Source: Eledone cirrhosa (Eukaryota). Taken from it: a stretch of DNA of 64,000 bases. Shown here in pieces: positions 18,040 to 64,000 of the stretch. The stretch lies in NCBI GenBank assembly GCA_964016885.1, contig OZ024751.1:15314001-15378000 (forward strand), given 5' to 3'. Both the position numbers and the translations under genes were made by a program. Positions within the stretch are counted from its first letter, which is position 1; each line of letters starts with the position of its first letter. Under the pieces are notes generated by a model. That model did not search any database. It saw only the letters and a program-made list of their open reading frames with translations, and was not told where the DNA came from.

Positions 18040-19400
18040 TTGCACTGACCCAGAAGTGGGCCGAGTGCAAACTGTCCCTGAAAGGTATATATAGCGTCCG
18101 TCATCTACTACCGCCTGACCGTTGTGCCTTGCCCAAGGGAAACGCTCGCCAAAATGGAGCGCGCACTCTTCCAATTCCTTTGGAAGAAGCGGGCTCCTAT
18201 GGTGAGGAGATCCATCTGCTGTCAACACCCTTCGAAAGGAGGGCTGGGGATGCCGTGGCTAATGATACGTAAACATGCATTAAGGCTACGGCACCTTCAG
18301 GTATTCCTCTCCGGTCAACCGGTGTGGGCCCCGTTTGTGAGGCGAGCCTTTCCCAGACTCGTCTTACTCACCGAGCTGCAATCCTGGGTCAAGCAAAGAC
18401 CGAGAAAACTGGGTGCCTGGCACACCGAGTGTGCCCAGGCACTCACGGCTCTCTGGCAGGCGGACCCGGCTGTCAGTGGAGAATCCACCTCATCATTCTA
18501 TAGAGGGCTGGTGGTTAGCAGGTGCGACGACGCTCTCGGAGAAGCCCTAGGCATGGAGGAAGACGAACTGGCCAACCTGTTCGGTAGGACATTCAGCCCG
18601 GGACCCATGGATAACTTCCAGAGGTCCCTGGCCTGGCAATGCTACAGAAGGGCTCTGCCCGTTCGAGAAAGGCTCTACAGACACGGGCACCCGGGTAGGG
18701 ACCCCTCGAAAAAGATCTATCCCCGATGCGTGTGTGACGAGGAAACTGTTGCACACGCATTGGTACACTGCTCGGGCATTGCCGATCTGTGGGGCTATGT
18801 CGAACAACTGCTGTCAAGGGTGGGACCGATCCGGTTGACCACCGAGTCTATTGTAACGATAAAGCCGCCTCCCCTCTTCAAAAACGAAGAAGAGGCGGTG
18901 TTTCTGTGCGTAATAGCCATGGCGAAAGAGGTTGTATGGTGGACGCGTCTGAAAGGACTGAGGTCAGACACCTTTCTCTCTGGCCAACAACTGGTCCGTT
19001 TCTTCCGATATCATTTCGGAAGAAGGATCAGGATGGAGAGAGAGGTGCTGCACCCCAGCCGTTTTTATGAAAGATGGGTGAAAGTGGCGAGAATGGCCCG
19101 TGTGAATGGGCCTTCACTCTACATCAGACTATAGGTGAGGAAGATGAAAGACCAAGGGAGCACCCCTTCTCTGTGCTCCTGAGGAAAAGGGTTGCACACT
19201 TTTTTTCGGGGGTGTGTGCGACCCCCCAAGGCGCCTCCTCTCTATTGAGGACTTTGTTATAAATTTTATTTTTTGTTATATTTTATTTGATTTTTATATA
19301 TTGTTATTGCCTCCTCCTTATTGAGGATGCCTTGTTTTGTAAACTCCCCCCCATTGTACTTGTCCCACTTTTGATGCCCTGGTGGCAAATAAAAGAAACA
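18040..19400 (+). mobile_element. 5'-truncated Tx1/L1-type non-LTR retrotransposon (ORF2 C-terminus with zf-RVT-like region)
   Basis: ORF 18124-19134 with FLW...GGLG.P, LAW......LP....L and C..ET..H....C motifs; W...KLSLKG just upstream in another frame; AATAAA/A-rich end; 13-bp TSD TATCTATATATCT at 18027-18039 and 19401-19413; CpG-rich. Confidence 0.9.
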
Positions 19401-21565
19401 TATCTATATATCTATGTTCTATCTGTTTCTGGCAAGTCTCTCTCTCTCTACTACTGTCAATTGATTGACTGTTTCCCATGATGAGGACATCTGTCTCCCT
19501 TCACCTCTCCCTCAAGTTGATGTTGTTTAATCTCAGCTCACCTCTGACCAAATACACACATGATCAAAAGTATTTCAGCCACAACCAACTGTGTTCTTTC
19601 TAGGCACAGTTCACCTAAGACCACAGTTTTTTTCTAATATAGTAGGGTCTGATTTAAGGGAGATTTGTGTGCTATTTCTAGTAGTTTTAACAACTCCATA
19701 GAGGCTTTCTTGTTGGCTTTATTCTCTCTCACTTCTTCTCCCTTGATGACTTCAACATACATATTCCCTGCTGGCCCCCCACACTCCACCTACACCAACA
19801 CTGCTGGAGGCTGGGTCATTTATCATTTAGAACTGTCTACATCAGTTAGTATCACATTATTTTCCAAAGAATCTTCACTTTCTTCTAATCACTAAACCCA
19901 ATCTTCACCCACCTTTGCTCACCATCTCTGCACGCATCAGATCAACTAAACACTATCTAATTAAGCCAACACACCTCACATCTTCCTACTACATACTTAT
20001 TTCCTCTCAAATCCTCTGATATTTCAAATCATCTAACTGATTGGAGCTCTACTAGTTTTATGTTGATGACCTCTGGCAGAAAATATTGTGTTTCCTCACC
20101 AACCCATTCTAGATAGTTAAGTGGGTGACCCAAATCATTCTCCTAAGCATGCCCCTTTCTTTACAGTCTTCAAACAAAGGAAACCTATAATCCCTAACCC
20201 TACCAGTTGTTCACTCATATCTGTGTTATAGTAATACAGACAAGGAACACTGCCTACACCAACTAGAGAAAATCTTTCATCAGTATCAAGTGGCAGGTTT
20301 TTTACCCATTACTGTATACACATCTACAAGAGTTTTACCACATAATTAATGGATGCTTTTTGTGCATCACATAGCTAACAAGCTTTCTTGTCTATCACTC
20401 CTAAACCTAGAGGCCTCACACTGGAAAACCTTCTATATATTACCAACATTCTTTGCTTCCAATTGTGCTGATGCAATGACAAACAGCACCCAGTCTACTC
20501 TGTAAAGTGGTAGTACTGGTGCCAAGACAAACAGCACCCAATCCACTCTGTAAAATGGTAGTGTTGGTGCGAAGACAAAAAACACTGTCTACTCTGTAAA
20601 GTGGTAGTGTTGGTACCAATACAAAAAGCACCTGGTCCACCCTGTAAAATGGTAGAGCTGGTACCAAGACAAAAAGCACTCAGTCCATCCTGTATAGTGG
20701 TAGTACTGGTACCAAGACAAAAGCACCTCTAGTGACTCCTCATTCTTTCTTTCCTACCGCCCAGTGTCTTCTACTCCCGAAACTAACTATTTCCATGCCA
20801 TGTATATTGTCTCAACACTCTTCTTCTACCACTACTACAATGGCCTATGCTCCCCAAACTAGCTATTTCCATACCACATATTGTCACCTCACCCTCACTC
20901 TTCTATTACTACAATGGCCTAAGCTTCCCAAAGCTACCTAGATCCATGCTATCTCCACCTAAACTCAGCTGACATCTCCATCTTCCCATGATACCCATTT
21001 TGTAGCTCTTCTCTTTCAAACTGTGCACTAACTACTTTACCTAATCCTTCTTCCCTTAAATATCAATCTAACCTGTCTAGAAGAGCCTGTGATTGTTCAG
21101 TTTAACTACACCACCTGGTCTTTGGGTGCATTCAGTGGAGTTCATTCTGTTGCAAGCATTTGGGTAGGTCTTTGGTTTTAGGATACTTTCCCCATACCTC
21201 TCCACCAGTTTCAGAAGCACTAAAAAGGGTCATGGGCACTGCCTTTCTCTCCCTGACTTAATTTAAAAAAAATCTGGACAGTCTCTGCTTCTTGACTAAA
21301 ACTATTAACCCTTTCATGACTGCATTTCTAATGAAATACACTCTTATTTTAATTAATTAATGAAGAATTTTGAGGGATTTACTAAAGTTATTAATTAATT
21401 CATTACTAAGATATTAACTTAATGTAAGGTTCTTATATAAAATTATGTTGGAAGATTTTAATTTAAATTGGTAACCTTTAAAATGGGTGGTTTTATTTCA
21501 TAGAACCAGAGCCAGCTTTGGCCAGGTTATTAACTTGTGACATGTTTTGTATTGTACCTGTGTAG

Positions 21566-37852: not shown

Positions 37853-39104
37853 ATTATCATCATCATCATCATCTGCATTTACATGTTCTGTTCATGAGTC
37901 AACTTGTTGATGTCTCAGTGGCAAGAATACAATTCCTTTCTTGTTGTCTGAAGCAATAATAAACCATTTATCATGTGAACAGTTTTCCGTCCATTTTACA
38001 GATCAGAACTTTCTGCCCCCTTTATCCAGATTTGGTGGAGTGGGAAACTTTGTAATGTTTGGGGTGGAGGAGTGTCTCTTTACCTAGAATTGGTGGAGAT
38101 GGTGATTGGTTCTGAATCCATTCACAATGATATATGCTACTCTACTTGTACATTTGTATTGTCACTACTCAATCTCTGTTTCCACCCTTCTCCAAGCATG
38201 GCTAGTTAGTGCAGAACATTAGATGTGACTAAGACATGTCTTAACTCTTTGGCATTTAAACCAGCCAGAATTCTCCGACTTCTTTCTGTTGAACTGGCCG
38301 CTCATTGATGTTAAGATATTGTTCTCAAAATAAATAACATCAAAATCTCATAAATTCGACATTATGTGAGATAAAGCCTTCATGTGAAAATATAATTATA
38401 TATAGGGTAATGTAAATGCTAAAGATTTAAATCATATGGCTGATCATTAAAAACTCTATAATATCAAGCAGATTACCAACATTGCTCTTGATAGGTAAAA
38501 CTTCTAGTGATGCTTATTTCTTCATCACTCTTTAACATGTATTTTCCATACTTGGATTAGACAGGCTGTCACATTATGAGGCTAAACAGGTGGATGCCCT
38601 TCCTAATGCTAACCACTTTACAGGGTGGACTGGGAATTTTTTGTGGCATAAGCATGATCACATTACAGGGTGAACTGGGTGCTTTTTGTCATGGCATCAG
38701 CACTACCATCTTACAGGGTAGACTGGGAGCTTTTTGTCATGGCACCAGCACTACCACCTTACAGAGTGGACTGGGTGCTTTTTTACTGTAGTTCCAGCAC
38801 AACCACCTTACAGGGTGGACTGGATGATTTTTGTCATGGCAATCAGCACTACCACCTTATAGGGTGGACAGTGCTTTTTGTCATGGCACTGCCATGACCA
38901 CCCCATCGTTGTTATCTCCTTTCCTGCAGTTGCCATAGCTACAAGTGAAACTCTACTCATCATGCACTGTTTTCTTTAGTTTTGTATATTGGCAGCGATT
39001 ATCTGTTCCATTAATTTAAACCGACTAATTCCATAATGAGAGAGAGAAAGAGGGGATTGATGGATTCAATGTTTAGTTTAGGTTCCATGCTTCCTGAAAT
39101 TTGT

Positions 39105-45552: not shown

Positions 45553-46175
45553 CATCATCATCATCATCATCACCGTTTTACGTCCGTTCTTCCACGCTAG
45601 CATGGGTTAGACGGGTTGTCCTGTTGTGTGCAGTGTCTGGTCGGCTGACTATGCCTTGCTCATACAGGAACTGATCTGGCTTGATTTCTACAGCTGGATG
45701 CCCTTCCTAACACCAACCTCATTTACAGTGAGTGCTGGGTGCTTTTTCGTGGCGCCTACACGTCCACTTTACAGTGTGGGCTGGGTGCTTTTTTGCCGTG
45801 GCACCTCCACGACCACCTTGCAGTGGGGGGTGTGGGGGCATATTGTTTATATGCTTCAGCATGTACCCATGGGAGGTCGGGTACTCTGTATTACTGCGTG
45901 ACGCCAGAAGTCACGGTCGTGTGTCATTGTCTTTGAGAGGTGTAATTGGGTAAGGTCGGCTTTTATCACCTCATCCCAGGTCATCTTGGGTCTCCCCACT
46001 CCGCGGTTTCCATCAACTTCTAGTGCTCTGCACCTTTTTATGCAGCTGTCATCCTTCATACGCATCACATGTCCATACCAGCGCAACCGCCTCTCCTGCA
46101 CACAGCATTTGATTCCTCTTATGCTCAGTCTCTCTCTCAATTCATTTATGCTTTGTCGACATCCATCGGAGCATG
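45553..46175 (-). mobile_element. RTE-clade LINE 3' end
   Basis: RRLRWYGHVMRM....GNRGVGRPKMTWDEVIKADL...DRDFWR; (GAT)n tail; related decayed copy at ~9066-9725 and many short tails elsewhere. Confidence 0.85.
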
Positions 46176-46924
46176 CAGGCTTCGTTTCTCTCTAATCTAC
46201 GTAAGTCTTCCACCTTCACAAACTGATTTATTTAAACAAATCACCTTATCTTGATTGTTATAATATATCTGCCATTCTCCCCTCTGGTCTTTTTCAGTCA
46301 CCTGTTTTATTTAGCAATATTCTCAGAATTTCAAACAGAACCAATTTGTTAAATAACAGATTATTGACATTCGGCCATAAAGCCCCTGTATATCTTTGTA
46401 TTAGTCATTTGTGATGCCACTTACTGTTCTGCTTAAACTAGAGTATGTATAGATATGTTATCCACCATGTTAGATGGTCATTTTGGTGGCACAATAAAAA
46501 GTACCCACTTCACCTTGTTAGGTGGTTGTTTTGGTGCCATGATAAAAAGCACCCAGTCCACTCTGTAAGACAGTCATACTGGTGACACAATGAAAAACCA
46601 CCCAGTCTACCCTGTTAGATGGTCATTTTGGTTACACGATAAAAAGCACCCAGTCCACAGTATAACATGGTTTTAGGAAGGGCATCTAGCCATAGAAACG
46701 AAGCCAAAATACAGATCCATATGCGCAAGACACGGTCTCCTGAACTGACTTGTTTCAGACACTAAACTAGGGACTGAATCACAAGCAGCAGGTAGACTAG
46801 TGCTTTTCAAATTCAAAAAGCCATTAACATATTAAAAAAAAGGTACATTTCTTTGTAGATGGTACCGTGCTTTCTTTCATACCAAATCAATTAGAATAAA
46901 ATAAAGAGTTAGAAGGCAACTTAC

Positions 46925-47287: not shown

Positions 47288-48072
47288 TAATAATAATAAT
47301 AATAATGAAATTATTGTCTACAGTGCTCAGGTGCACTACAACTCATCAAAGGTGCATGTATAGTACATAGAATAATGTACAAATATCAGGAAAATGAACA
47401 GTGTACGAGTCATGAAATACATGTGTGCGTGTGTATGGAGGGAGGATATCAGGTATAGTGTTGGCGAATCTCAGGAAACATGGAGGTTTTAAAGGGTGCA
47501 GTGTCTCGACAGCTAACTGATGCAGGTAGTTTGTTCCATGCTTCAGCAACTCTGAGTGTGAAAAAAGTTTCCAAAAGTCATGGGAGCTGTGCTGTTTTCT
47601 GACTTTGTAGGCATGCCCACGTGTGTTAGACACATGGAAATAAAAGAAAAGGTGCTCAGAGTCGTTGTTGGCAAGATGGTTAATAATTTTGTGGGTCTTT
47701 ACCAAGACAGTTGCCAGACGTCGGAGCTTCAATGTATCCATGCCCAGGGAAGCAAGGCGTTTAGAGTACGGTAGATGCCTGATGGAGGGTATTCGCTTGA
47801 TTGCACGTCTCTGAACAGTTTCCAGGCGGTCAATGTTCTGAGCAAGATAGGGGTTCCAGACTGGTGATGCAAATTCTAAGTGTGGCCACACAATAGCTAT
47901 ATACAGCTTTAAATAGAGCGGCTGACAAAGGTCTTGCTGAGCGATGCTAAAACACCCTCGCCCTTCTTGACAATTTTAGAGACGTGCTTCGTCCAACGCA
48001 AATCGTGCTGCTGACAGTAATGCCCAGGTCACGTTCACAAGAAGACTTCTTGATATTAGTGTTGTGGAGGGA
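47288..48072 (-). mobile_element. CR1-clade LINE 3' fragment with frameshifts
   Basis: ERDLGITVS...PHLEFASPVWNPYL..IDRLE.VQRRA.KRIP...LPY..RL..LG..TL..RRL; 3' UTR ending TGCACCTGAGCACTGT..(ATT)n. Confidence 0.88.
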
Positions 48073-50324: not shown

Positions 50325-51400
50325 TGTGTCAGACAAACTCAGGGACCCACATCATATAAGTGTTAACCTGTATTCTACCAAGTGCCAGACACACCCAGGG
50401 ATCCATGTCTCAAACATTACTCATATGCTACCATGTGCCAGACAAACCAGAGACATACATCACACAAACGTTTCCCCTCTACTCAACCAAGTGTCAGACG
50501 CACCCAAAGACTCAAATCTCAAACGTTTCCCTCTACTCAACCAAGTGTCAGACACACCCAAAGACCCAAATCTCAAACGTTTTCCCTCTACTCAACCAAG
50601 TGTCAGACACCCCCAAAGACCCAAATCTCAAACGTTTCCCTCTACTCAACCAAGTGTCAGACACACCCAAAGACCCAAATCTCAAACGTTTCCCCTCTAC
50701 TCAACCAAGTGTCAGACATACCCAAAGACCCAAATCTCAAACGTTTCCCCTCTACTCAACCAAGTGTCAGACACCCCCAAAGACCCAAATCTCAAACGTT
50801 TCCCTCTACTCAACCAAGTGTCAGACACCCCCAAAGACCCAAATCTCAAACGTTCCCCTCTACTCAACCAAGTGTCAGACACACCCAAAGACCCAAATCT
50901 CAAACGTTTCCCCTCTATTTAACCAAGTGTCAGAGAAACCCAAAGACCTAAATCACACAAATGTTTCCCCTCTACTCAACCAAGTATCTGACACACCCAA
51001 AGACCTAAATCTCACAAACGTTTCCCCTCTACTCAACCAAGTGTCAGACACACCCGAAGACCCAAATCACACAAACGTTTCCCCTCTACTTAACCAAGTG
51101 TCAGATACACCCAAAGACCTAAATCTCACAAACGTTTCCCCTCTACTTAACCAAGTGTCAGACACACCCAAAGACCTAAATCTCACAAACGTTTCCCCTC
51201 TACTTAACCAAGTGTCAGAGAAACCCAAAGACCTAAATCTCACAAACGTTTCCCCTCTACTTAACCAAGTGTCAGACACACCCAAAGATCCAAATCTCAC
51301 AAACATTTCCCCTCTACTCACCAAGTGTCAGACACACCCAAAGACTCAAACCTCACAAATATACCCTCATACTCTACCAAGTATCAGACAAATCCAGGGA
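50325..51400. repeat. 54-57-bp minisatellite
   Basis: Unit CAACCAAGTGTCAGACACACCCAAAGACCCAAATCTC(AC)AAACGTTTCCCCTCTACT; explains the long ORFs at 50326-51517. Confidence 0.92.
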
Positions 51401-51591
51401 CCCACATCTCACGTTTGCCCATACTCTACCATACTCTACCATATTATCATGGGCAAAATATTTGACACCTCTCATTTGCAATGTCTGTCTATTCTAGCAG
51501 ATGACAGAAAACAGTAAAAAAAAAAAAAAAAAAAGAATAAAATGTGTAAATTTTCCTCTGAAAAAAGCAAAGTGAGGAATATTCTGATTAC

Positions 51592-51764
51592 CTTTGCTCC
51601 ACAATCAGCATCTTTGTAAACACAATAGCCTATAAACACAGGGTCAACCATCTTTACCAAGATATTGTCCACACAATAAGCATGTATGCATTCTACACCT
51701 CTAGATCTCATGTTCTCTAATAATCCATGTTCTCTGAGAGCTTTATATAGGCCACCATTACCAT
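51592..51764 (-). CDS. UAP1: UAP1 exon
   Basis: ttctag|[58 protein letters not shown]|gtaatc; PDGNGG and VDNIL motifs; 173 nt. Confidence 0.96.
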
Positions 51765-52262: not shown

Positions 52263-52306
<44 letters not shown>

Positions 52307-52341
52307 CGATATTAAACAAATGGAAACTATATTTATAAAAC

Positions 52342-52420
52342 CATATTTATTTCATTATACATATTTCGGGGATACCATATTAAAAATATGGCATGCCTTC
52401 GTCAGATAAAATACAATATA
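52342..52420 (-). ncRNA. type I hammerhead ribozyme motif (sense to UAP1 pre-mRNA)
   Basis: Mirror of 53280-53358; CTGACGA at 52405-52399; predicted cut between 52356 and 52355. Confidence 0.75.
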
Positions 52421-53279
52421 TAAACAGTTTTATAAATAATTTTGACGTACCATAAATATGAGCGACCATTATGTAGGAAGCTGGTTTGGTAGTGAAGTGT
52501 TTATAAATATTTAGTGTTAAGCACAGTTATAAAGAAAGACGGAGAAAAAGAAGAAATGTATGTAAAGAAAAACAGAGAGAGATAGGGGAGAGAGAAATAG
52601 GGAGGAGGTGAAAAAAGAGAGGCAACCGAAGGCAACAGATGAATAATAATAATTCATCATACAAATTGAGAGGTTTAAGAGGGAGGGAGTACGGTAATTA
52701 TTTAGTTATAGTGTTAAGGACAGTTATAGAGGAGACGGAAAGAAAGAAAAAATTAGAGATGAAGAGAAAACAGACAAAATAATAATAATTATATAGGGGG
52801 AGGTGGAAATCAAGAGAGAAATAAGAGAGAACTCTCTTATTTCTCTCTTGATTTCCACCTCCCCCTATATAATTATTATTATTTTGTCTCCCTCTTTCTT
52901 TTCCCCCCACCTCTATCTCTCTCTGTCTGTTTTCTCTTCATCTCTAATTTTTTCTTTCTTTCCGTCTCCTCTATAACTGTCCTTAACACTATAACTAAAT
53001 AATTACCGTACTCCCTCCCTCTTAAACCTCTCAATTTGTATGATGAATTATTATTATTCATCTGTTGCCTTCGGTTGCCTCTCTTTTTTCACCTCCTCCC
53101 TATTTCTCTCTCCCCTATCTCTCTCTGTTTTTCTTTACATACATTTCTTCTTTTTCTCCGTCTTTCTTTATAACTGTGCTTAACACTAAATATTTATAAA
53201 CACTTCACTACCAAACCAGCTTCCTACATAATGGTCGCTCATATTTATGGTACGTCAAAATTATTTATAAAACTGTTTA

Positions 53280-53358
53280 TATATTGTATTTTATCTGACG
53301 AAGGCATGCCATATTTTTAATATGGTATCCCCGAAATATGTATAATGAAATAAATATG
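53280..53358 (+). ncRNA. type I hammerhead ribozyme motif
   Basis: CTGACGA 53295-53301; stem II GG-C-ATGCCATATT/TTT/AATATGGTAT-CC-CC; GAAA 53333-53336; palindromic stem III; AUA cut after 53344; 8+6 bp stem I. Confidence 0.75.
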
Positions 53359-53568
53359 GTTTTATAAATATAGTTTCCATTTGTTTAATATCGTATATCT
53401 ACTCCAAAAACTTGTCGAGTGCTTTATATCAGTTATAAAATATTTACTTGTTGTAACCCAACAATTTTAAATAAAACTTTTGCATATATATATATATATA
53501 TATATATAGTGCATATATATATATATAGTGTGTGTGTGTATATATATATAGTCATCATCATTATCATC

Positions 53569-54720: not shown

Positions 54721-54726
54721 TGTTAC

Positions 54727-54902
54727 CTGGTGCTAAAGCTATACCATTTTTAGCATTATTGATTATTTTCCCATCAAATGTTATACAAGGAAGTAGAAAC
54801 TGTTGAAAAACTATAATATTCTCCTTCTTCAGACCAAAATAGTCATGTTGTTGGAAAAATTGTTCTGTACTTTCTTTGGTGTGGTCACTGGTCATTATAT
54901 AC
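54727..54902 (-). CDS. UAP1: UAP1 exon
   Basis: ccacag|g [59 protein letters not shown]|gtaaca; 176 nt, phase 2 to 1. Confidence 0.94.
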
Positions 54903-55450
54903 CTGTGGCAGGTGGTAGAGGTAATATATTAACAGAGTGACCACTGATCATTATATACCTGTGGCAGGTGGTAGAGGTAAAATATCAATAGAGTGACCAC
55001 TGGTCATTATATACCTGTGACAGGAGGTAGAGGTAAATTAACAGAGTGACCACTGGTAATTATATACCTGTGGCAGCTGGTAGAGGTAAAATATTAACAG
55101 AGTGACCACTGGTCATTATATACCTGTGGCAGGTGGTAGAGGTAAAATATTAACAGTGACCACTGGGTGACCACTGGTCATTATATACCTGTGGCAGGTG
55201 GTAGAGGTAAACTATTAACAGAGTGACCACTGGGTGACCACTGTCATTATATACCTGTGGCAGGTGGTAGAGGTAAAATATTAACAGAGTGACCACTGGT
55301 CATTATATACCTGTGGCAGGTGGAAGAGGTAAAATATTAACAGTGACCACTGGTCATTATATACCTGTGGCAGGAGGTAGAGGTAAAATATTAACAGAGT
55401 ATTACTGTATGACCACTGGTCATTATATACCTGTGGCAGGAGGTAGAGGT
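54881..55450 (-). repeat. 53-66-bp tandem array duplicating a UAP1 splice acceptor and exon start
   Basis: Ten CAG|GTATATAAT units with first exonic base at 54902 (real), 54958, 55014, 55067, 55123, 55188, 55254, 55310, 55364, 55430. Confidence 0.92.
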
Positions 55451-56312
55451 GATAGTGGAGATAGTGGTGGTGGTAGAGGTAGTGGAGGTAGACAGTGGTG
55501 TGGAGGTAGAGATAGTGGTGGTGGAGGTAGTGGTGGTAGAGATGGTGGAGATAGTGGTGGTAGAGATAGTGGTGGTGGTGGTAGAGATAGAGGTGGTAGA
55601 GATAGTGGTGGTGGTGGTAGAGGTAGTGGAGGTAGAGATAGTGATGGTGGTGGTAGAGGTAGTGGAGGTAGAGGTGGTGGTGGTAGAGGTAGTGGAGGTA
55701 GAGATAGTGGTAGTGGTGGTAGAGATAGTGGAGGTGGTGGTGGTAGAGTAGAGGAGGTAGAGATAGTGGTGGTGGTAGAGGTAGTGGAGGTAGAGATAGT
55801 GGTGGTGGTGGAGGTAGTGGAGGTAGAGATAGTGGTGGTGGTGGAGGTAGTGGAGGTAGAGATAGTGGTGGTGGTGGAGATAGTGGAGGTAGAGATAGTG
55901 GAGGTGGTGGTAGAGGTAGTGCAGGTAGAGATAGTGGTGGTGGAGGTAGTGGTGGTGGTAGAGATAGCAGTGGTGGTGGTGGTAGAGATAGTGGAGGTAG
56001 AGATAGTGGTGGTGGTGGTGGTAGAGGTGGTGGTGGTAGAGGTAGTGGTGGTAGAGATAGCGGTGGTGGAGGTAGTGGTGGTGGTGGTAGAGATAGTGGA
56101 GGTAGAGATAGTGGTGGTGGAGGTAGTGGTGGTGGTGGTGGTAGAGGTAGTGGTGGTAGAGATAGTGGTGGTGGAGATAGTGGTGGTGGAGATAGTGGTG
56201 GTGGAGATAGTGGTGGTGGAGATAGTGGTGGTGGAGATAGTGGTGGTGGAGATAGTGGTGGTGGTGGTAGAGATAGTGGAGGTAGAGATAGTGGTGGTGG
56301 AGATAGTGGTGG
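55450..56312. repeat. GGT/GGA/TAG low-complexity repeat
   Basis: GTAGAGATAGTGGTGGTG-type triplet mosaic. Confidence 0.9.
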
Positions 56313-56535
56313 GTGTATGTGTGGTCACTGGTCATTATATACCGGAGGCAAAGTGGTAGAGGTAGAGGTGATACTGGTGGTAGTAGTGAACATAACTTAA
56401 AGGTTTCTTAAATAAATTTACAATGGAATCCTTTTAATATAAGTGTGAACATTTTAAAATGGGCATCTTTGTATCATAGAATCAGGGCAATTCAGTAAGT
56501 TTGGTGTCAAAAAGGGTCAACAAAAAGCAAAATCA

Positions 56536-56790
<255 letters not shown>

Positions 56791-60787: not shown

Positions 60788-64000
<3,213 letters not shown>

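Follow-up and report, generated by a model that had tools for sequence, protein, structure and literature searches.

Decoy splice acceptors in a minisatellite across an intron-exon boundary of a cephalopod UAP1 gene: the spliced sequence seen uses the last of ten near-identical sites

Which splice acceptor is used when the 3' end of an intron, together with the start of the following exon, stands in the gene many times over, and do the additional copies have a function? This question is raised by the gene for UAP1 (UDP-N-acetylhexosamine pyrophosphorylase), eight exons of which were identified on the minus strand of a 64,000-nucleotide stretch of cephalopod DNA (hereinafter the window) when the proteins of Argonauta and Octopus sinensis served as tblastn queries. 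The first coding exon or exons, encoding residues 1-90, were not found within the window by this search. Both exons flanking the intron in question match Pfam UDPGP; the donor at 56576 splits a Trp codon (phase 2), and the exon behind the intron encodes a segment with 84% identity to Argonauta UAP1 and 81% to O. sinensis UAP1. Identities of this order suggest an octopod other than these two species. The features of the locus are listed in Table 1. On the evidence laid out below, the array is most probably a tolerated minisatellite of the type termed "mirage" in amphioxus, without a function of its own, and the transcript seen uses its last copy.

Table 1. Coordinates of the array-bearing region of UAP1 in the window
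Feature	Positions	Strand	Basis and remarks
Next UAP1 exon, 173 nt	51592..51764	-	tblastn; spliced contig connects it with 54727
True UAP1 exon, 176 nt, YIMTSDH...GIALAP	54727..54902	-	Purine-rich after base 22; donor CAG/GTAACA
True acceptor, intron part of the last repeat unit	54903..54930	-	Branch-point-like TTAAT ~27 nt upstream; use shown by X1 contig
Minisatellite, 53-66-nt units, nine decoy acceptors	54903..55455	-	TRF, acceptor matches, unit alignment; X2/X3 contigs
Array-bearing intron, 1,673 nt	54903..56575	-	Junction shown by X1 contig
C/A/T low-complexity block, 863 nt, no AG	55456..56318	-	8-mers common to acceptor tracts
Eleventh, outermost copy (acceptor tract + 24 nt of exon start)	56311..56385	-	Exon-start base 56342; AG changed to CG
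Coding exon of UAP1 preceding the array, 193 nt	56576..56768	-	tblastn, 91% to Argonauta UAP1; Pfam UDPGP; end = X1 contig loose end

TRF delineated the repeat at 54886-55450 (period 56, 9.7 copies, 85% matches). Ahead of the true site at 54902, nine decoy acceptors of the form CAG/GTATATAAT were found at 55430, 55364, 55310, 55254, 55188, 55123, 55067, 55014, and 54958 (minus strand), each continuing into about 22 nt of exon start. An earlier note on this DNA had placed the decoys at offsets of 56, 112, 165, 221, 286, 352, 408, 462, and 528 nt, and these positions were reproduced exactly; its statement that they read YIMTSGH applies to six of the nine, the other three reading YIMTVVT, YIITSGH, and YIMISGH. 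The decoys differ from the true site by one to three mismatches in the 23 upstream bases, and in six of nine the first 17 exon bases are identical to those of the true exon. Because the window contains 10 matches (up to three mismatches allowed) to a 20-mer across the true acceptor and one match to each of the corresponding 20-mers at nine other UAP1 splice sites, the copies are duplicates and not chance resemblances; by the same measure, none of these nine sites bears a boundary array. A second case did not emerge from the ORFs searched against Pfam either: none of the 150, of which 141 (out of 188) lie near other arrays and 9 elsewhere, reached the cut-off. The inner units are homogeneous, with a mean of 1.5 mismatches in 34 nt and 6 of 36 pairs identical in a pairwise, tree-free comparison of eight decoys and the true site that left out 55430 (the upstream flank of which is not a unit). 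In all nine decoys, one exon-start hexamer is replaced by its own reverse complement, and this hexamer is unaltered in the copies at 54902 and 56342. Given that they share this derived inversion, the nine decoys likely descend from one altered copy.

Eight sequencing runs (X1-X8) are listed for two organism labels, A, that of the window, and B, a second label from another study (X5). We compared the contigs of four of these runs (X1, X2, X3, and X5) with positions 54722-55460; none of the eight is recorded as RNA, for X1-X4 there is no record of the kind of run, and X6-X8 consist of raw RAD-seq reads from organism A. X1 contributes a single 1,994-nt contig (depth 77.1) that aligns to 54727-54903 with no differences, and its loose ends, from which the junctions were derived, match the upstream exon's end on one side and the following exon's start on the other, letter for letter. 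This contig is a spliced sequence in which donor 56576 is joined to 54902, in agreement with the claim of the earlier note that the last of ten near-identical acceptors is chosen. X1 would thus appear to be a transcriptome; formally, the same sequence could come from a processed copy in DNA. Contigs of this kind lose rare forms. X2 and X3, which come from one sample, possibly the source of the window assembly, yielded unspliced pieces over 276 of the 548 array positions, with the decoys at 55188, 55014, and 54958 lying outside. Neither these gaps nor the lack of an X1 contig over the decoys should be read as absence. Three of these pieces each span two adjoining acceptors at the assembled spacing, two with no mismatches and one with two. 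The depths of X3 (26) and X2 (2.6) belong to different runs and are therefore not read as copy number.

The copy at 56342 was overlooked in the earlier note, as was the AG-free block that separates it from the decoys. Its 24 nt of exon start are identical to the true exon start, and it is the exception among the ten upstream copies, the AG being intact in the other nine. In the block, 12 of 29 and 7 of 19 8-mers from two acceptor tracts were found, and none of 29 for each of four control acceptors; the block is likely an expansion of the same acceptor tract. Organism B is represented by one 1,127-nt X5 contig that carries the exon with four listed differences, three of them synonymous, within an exon-bearing 214-nt piece with 10 differences. 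The same contig further holds a decoy-like 75-nt piece, a 24-nt piece, and a 31-nt piece of acceptor plus exon start that matches 54879-54909 exactly, with the AG intact. By eye, the flanks of this 31-nt copy resemble those of the 56342 copy. The distance from it down to the true acceptor comes to about 361 nt in organism B, compared with 1,440 nt for the 56342 copy in organism A (record coordinates, by hand). As judged from the alignment pieces of the contig only, organism B lacks the 863-nt block and departs from organism A in the number of copies, in their spacing, and in the outer AG. Since organism B holds copies at another spacing and with the AG intact, the duplication likely predates the A/B split and would then have changed in number, spacing, and signals. 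The comparison suggests a history in which one duplication across the intron-exon boundary, before the two organisms split, would have been followed in organism A by expansion and homogenization of a copy with the inverted hexamer and by growth of the acceptor tract into the block, with the outermost copy losing its AG.

The surroundings are rich in repeats. Tandem repeats make up 28% of the window, which contains 29 loci with a period of at least 20, 12 of them with at least five copies. If placement were random, a seed unit would cover one of about 16 splice sites with a probability of roughly 12-25%, a figure that assumes no selection and counts the UAP1 array itself. Another UAP1 intron harbors a 57-nt minisatellite (50430-51408, 17.6 copies) that comes within about 180 nt of donor 51592 and leaves the splice site outside the repeat. 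Four arrays of 48-49-nt units with similar consensus (38612-38889, 45722-45829, 46461-46658, and 20478-20727) are probably one dispersed repeat family. A 350-codon stop-free frame on the plus strand (18082-19134), with a zf-RVT match below the cut-off (E 1.4e-4), is probably a LINE remnant, and positions 47500-48030, inside a UAP1 intron, resemble by eye the 3' end of a LINE-type element. The UAP1 intron next to the array-bearing one contains a near-perfect inverted repeat (52299-53401; 478-nt arms, 100% complementary) with a 58-nt palindrome (52772-52889) between the arms; it is either an artefact of fold-back reads or a sequence whose transcript would form a long double-stranded stem in the pre-mRNA. 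A TA/TATG microsatellite of more than 3 kb occupies window positions 60800-64000.

What distinguishes the last acceptor from the other nine? Use of this copy runs counter to the first-AG scanning rule, which favors 55430, located behind about 900 AG-free bases. A better pyrimidine tract at the true site was ruled out as the selector, eight of the nine decoys being as rich as the true site or richer, and a branch-point-like motif is present at the true site and in eight of the nine decoys. RNA structure was ruled out as well: predictions for 15 and 37 C do not make the true site more open than the decoys, and they rank its branch region last in openness in two of the four settings and second to last in the other two. 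With decoy tracts at least equal in pyrimidines in eight of nine cases and not predicted to lag in accessibility, the acceptor sequence itself is not the selector. The sequences downstream differ: the true exon has a purine fraction of 0.60 and four GAA motifs, the decoys 0.38-0.43 and none, and the 176 nt of the true exon fall within the 141-195-nt range of the five exons measured. By analogy with vertebrate work, the simplest and most likely reading is that exon definition selects the acceptor adjacent to the real 176-nt exon, and the GAA motifs may act as enhancers. Only the last copy would present a full purine-rich exon plus donor; decoy use would create exons of 232-704 nt or stop-containing units, and stray products with early stops would likely be cleared by nonsense-mediated decay (NMD). 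The locus amounts to a natural test of 3' splice-site choice, offering ten near-identical acceptors with branch motifs, of which the last is used.

An assembler or long-read stutter as the origin of the array is extremely improbable. No listed contig piece spans the whole array, X2/X3 may be the very sample behind the window assembly, and a near-perfect fold-back lies 1.3 kb away, so artefacts are possible nearby; yet comparison of the units shows 0-4 mismatches in 34 bases as well as indels, three contig pieces bridge adjoining acceptors as assembled, and one contig under label B, which belongs to another study, contains several copies. That the decoys number exactly nine depends on the assembly. 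We consider it unlikely that the array is leaky, that is, that a sizeable share of transcripts uses decoys or unit-length poison cassettes and is destroyed by NMD, with array length setting UAP1 output. The claim of the earlier note that decoy use runs into a TAA stop holds for all nine decoys (the first stop comes after 8-23 codons, upstream of several later junctions), but stops are expected in any copied intron end and require no selection. Branch-point-like motifs in eight of nine decoys, the position of the first decoy behind the long AG-free run, where scanning would favor it, and the fair donor at the end of each unit are all compatible with leakage, as is the finding that only 2 of 175 decoy-to-GT pseudo-exons keep the frame and avoid a stop, each with a very weak donor; this last result also led us to reject in-frame protein variants made from decoys. 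One decoy, at 55254-55228, could form a 27-nt in-frame microexon without a stop, with a very weak donor. Against substantial leakage speak the use of 54902 in the spliced contig, the difference in structure between A and B, and the use of the exon-proximal site reported in the mirage, F7, and CBS cases. Low-level decoy use cleared by NMD is possible, because contigs drop rare forms and NMD hides decoy products. A stronger version, in which an old and still-turning-over ladder of poison cassettes diverts a real share of the pre-mRNA to NMD or to partial re-splicing and unit number acts as a heritable UDP-GlcNAc dial in octopods, appears very unlikely. Tuning of UAP1 by copy number via NMD would represent a repeat-length dial on a core metabolic enzyme; nothing here shows such tuning. 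A tolerated repeat, the reading we prefer, has counterweights of its own, namely, that there is only one RNA-like run, in which rare forms and NMD substrates would be missed, that the duplication is kept under both organism labels, B having a 31-nt decoy that is intact, a persistence that fits a functional reading too, and that each unit, ending in CAG/GTATAT, could be a poison cassette.

The earlier note had further proposed that mis-splicing to a decoy is repaired recursively, the regenerated donor being re-spliced onward until the true acceptor is reached. Donors were scored by the donor consensus and the motif of U1. U1 duplex energy served as a proxy for donor strength, the published measure being MaxEntScan (PMC6224609). 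The decoy junction does recreate a weak donor, as that note had said, with five of nine consensus matches and a U1 duplex of -4.2 kcal/mol, which 21% of the 504 intronic GTs of the gene equal or exceed. All seven real UAP1 donors scored (-5.0 to -12.2 kcal/mol) are stronger, although the real upstream donor is weak too (-5.0 kcal/mol, only 0.8 better), and so is the pre-mRNA unit-end donor CAG/GTATAT (seven of nine matches, -7.2 kcal/mol, top 3% of intronic GTs); donor competition of the kind described in PMC8605326 would favor keeping the stop-containing unit. AG and GT are juxtaposed in every unit, and a 53-66-nt unit with a downstream donor recalls the ~50-nt cryptic RS-exons of Drosophila ratchet points (PMC8605326), but the intron splits a Trp codon before Tyr, so that the exon must start with GTA regardless of splicing needs (among 66 homologues, 63 have WY and all have Y, with the intron position known from A and B only). 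Moreover, correct splicing creates the identical donor as well; its re-use there would delete the real exon, and this exon is retained. The intron is only 1,673 nt long, whereas ratchet points are found mostly in long introns (PMC8605326), and the exon junction complex represses re-splicing at junctions (PMC6224609). Recursive repair is accordingly highly improbable.

Comparison with known systems places the array, in the tolerated reading, closest to the mirages. PMC3087553 and PMC3902484 describe these as minisatellite-like duplications of intron-exon boundaries, many with AG/GT and with splicing reportedly undisturbed, in the amphioxus genes for Adh3, globin BflGb6, troponin C, and PGBD5. 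Five of six mirage features were found in UAP1: tandem units that span the boundary (intron 3' end plus exon 5' start), a unit size of 53-66 nt within the reported 10-160 bp (PMC3087553), AG/GT kept in most but not all units, authentic splicing (resting on one contig in one run), and a homogenized interior in which inner units are alike and boundary copies stand apart. For the sixth, length instability, a difference was seen between organism labels A and B only. UAP1 differs from the described mirages in belonging to a cephalopod mollusc, in occurring in altered form under a second organism label, and in the accompanying 863-nt low-complexity block, likely an expanded acceptor tract.

Recursive ratchet points and RS-exons (PMC8605326, PMC6224609) share with the array the juxtaposed AG/GT and, in form only, the short unit followed by a downstream donor. 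A ratchet point is expected in a long intron (50-73 kb in the examples of PMC8605326, 1,673 nt here), with a regenerated donor that has normal strength and prevails over the one of the RS-exon. In UAP1 the regenerated donor is weak by the U1 proxy, the GT is dictated by codons, and the copies seen in the alignment pieces of organism B lie at another spacing than in A.

Two human loci are parallel cases. In intron 7 of F7, a 37-bp VNTR crosses the exon boundary, and only the exon-proximal copy is used, structural masking not having been detected (PMC1557585); the F7 repeat offers five to nine identical splice sites on the donor side, with pseudo-sites functional by mutation, whereas UAP1 has ten near-identical sites on the acceptor side, known from sequence. 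CBS 844ins68 is a duplicated intron 7/exon 8 junction, that is, an intron end plus exon start, in which splicing strongly favors the downstream copy and eliminates the upstream exon fragment (PMC2630376, the wording of which is "donor" and a title cited in which names a 3' splice site); it has one extra copy where UAP1 has nine, or ten with the AG-less copy. In a literature search of limited scope, we found no earlier cephalopod case of a boundary minisatellite. The UAP1 array extends mirage-type boundary minisatellites to a cephalopod and suggests that a duplication of this type can persist through the splitting of a lineage even as its shape changes.
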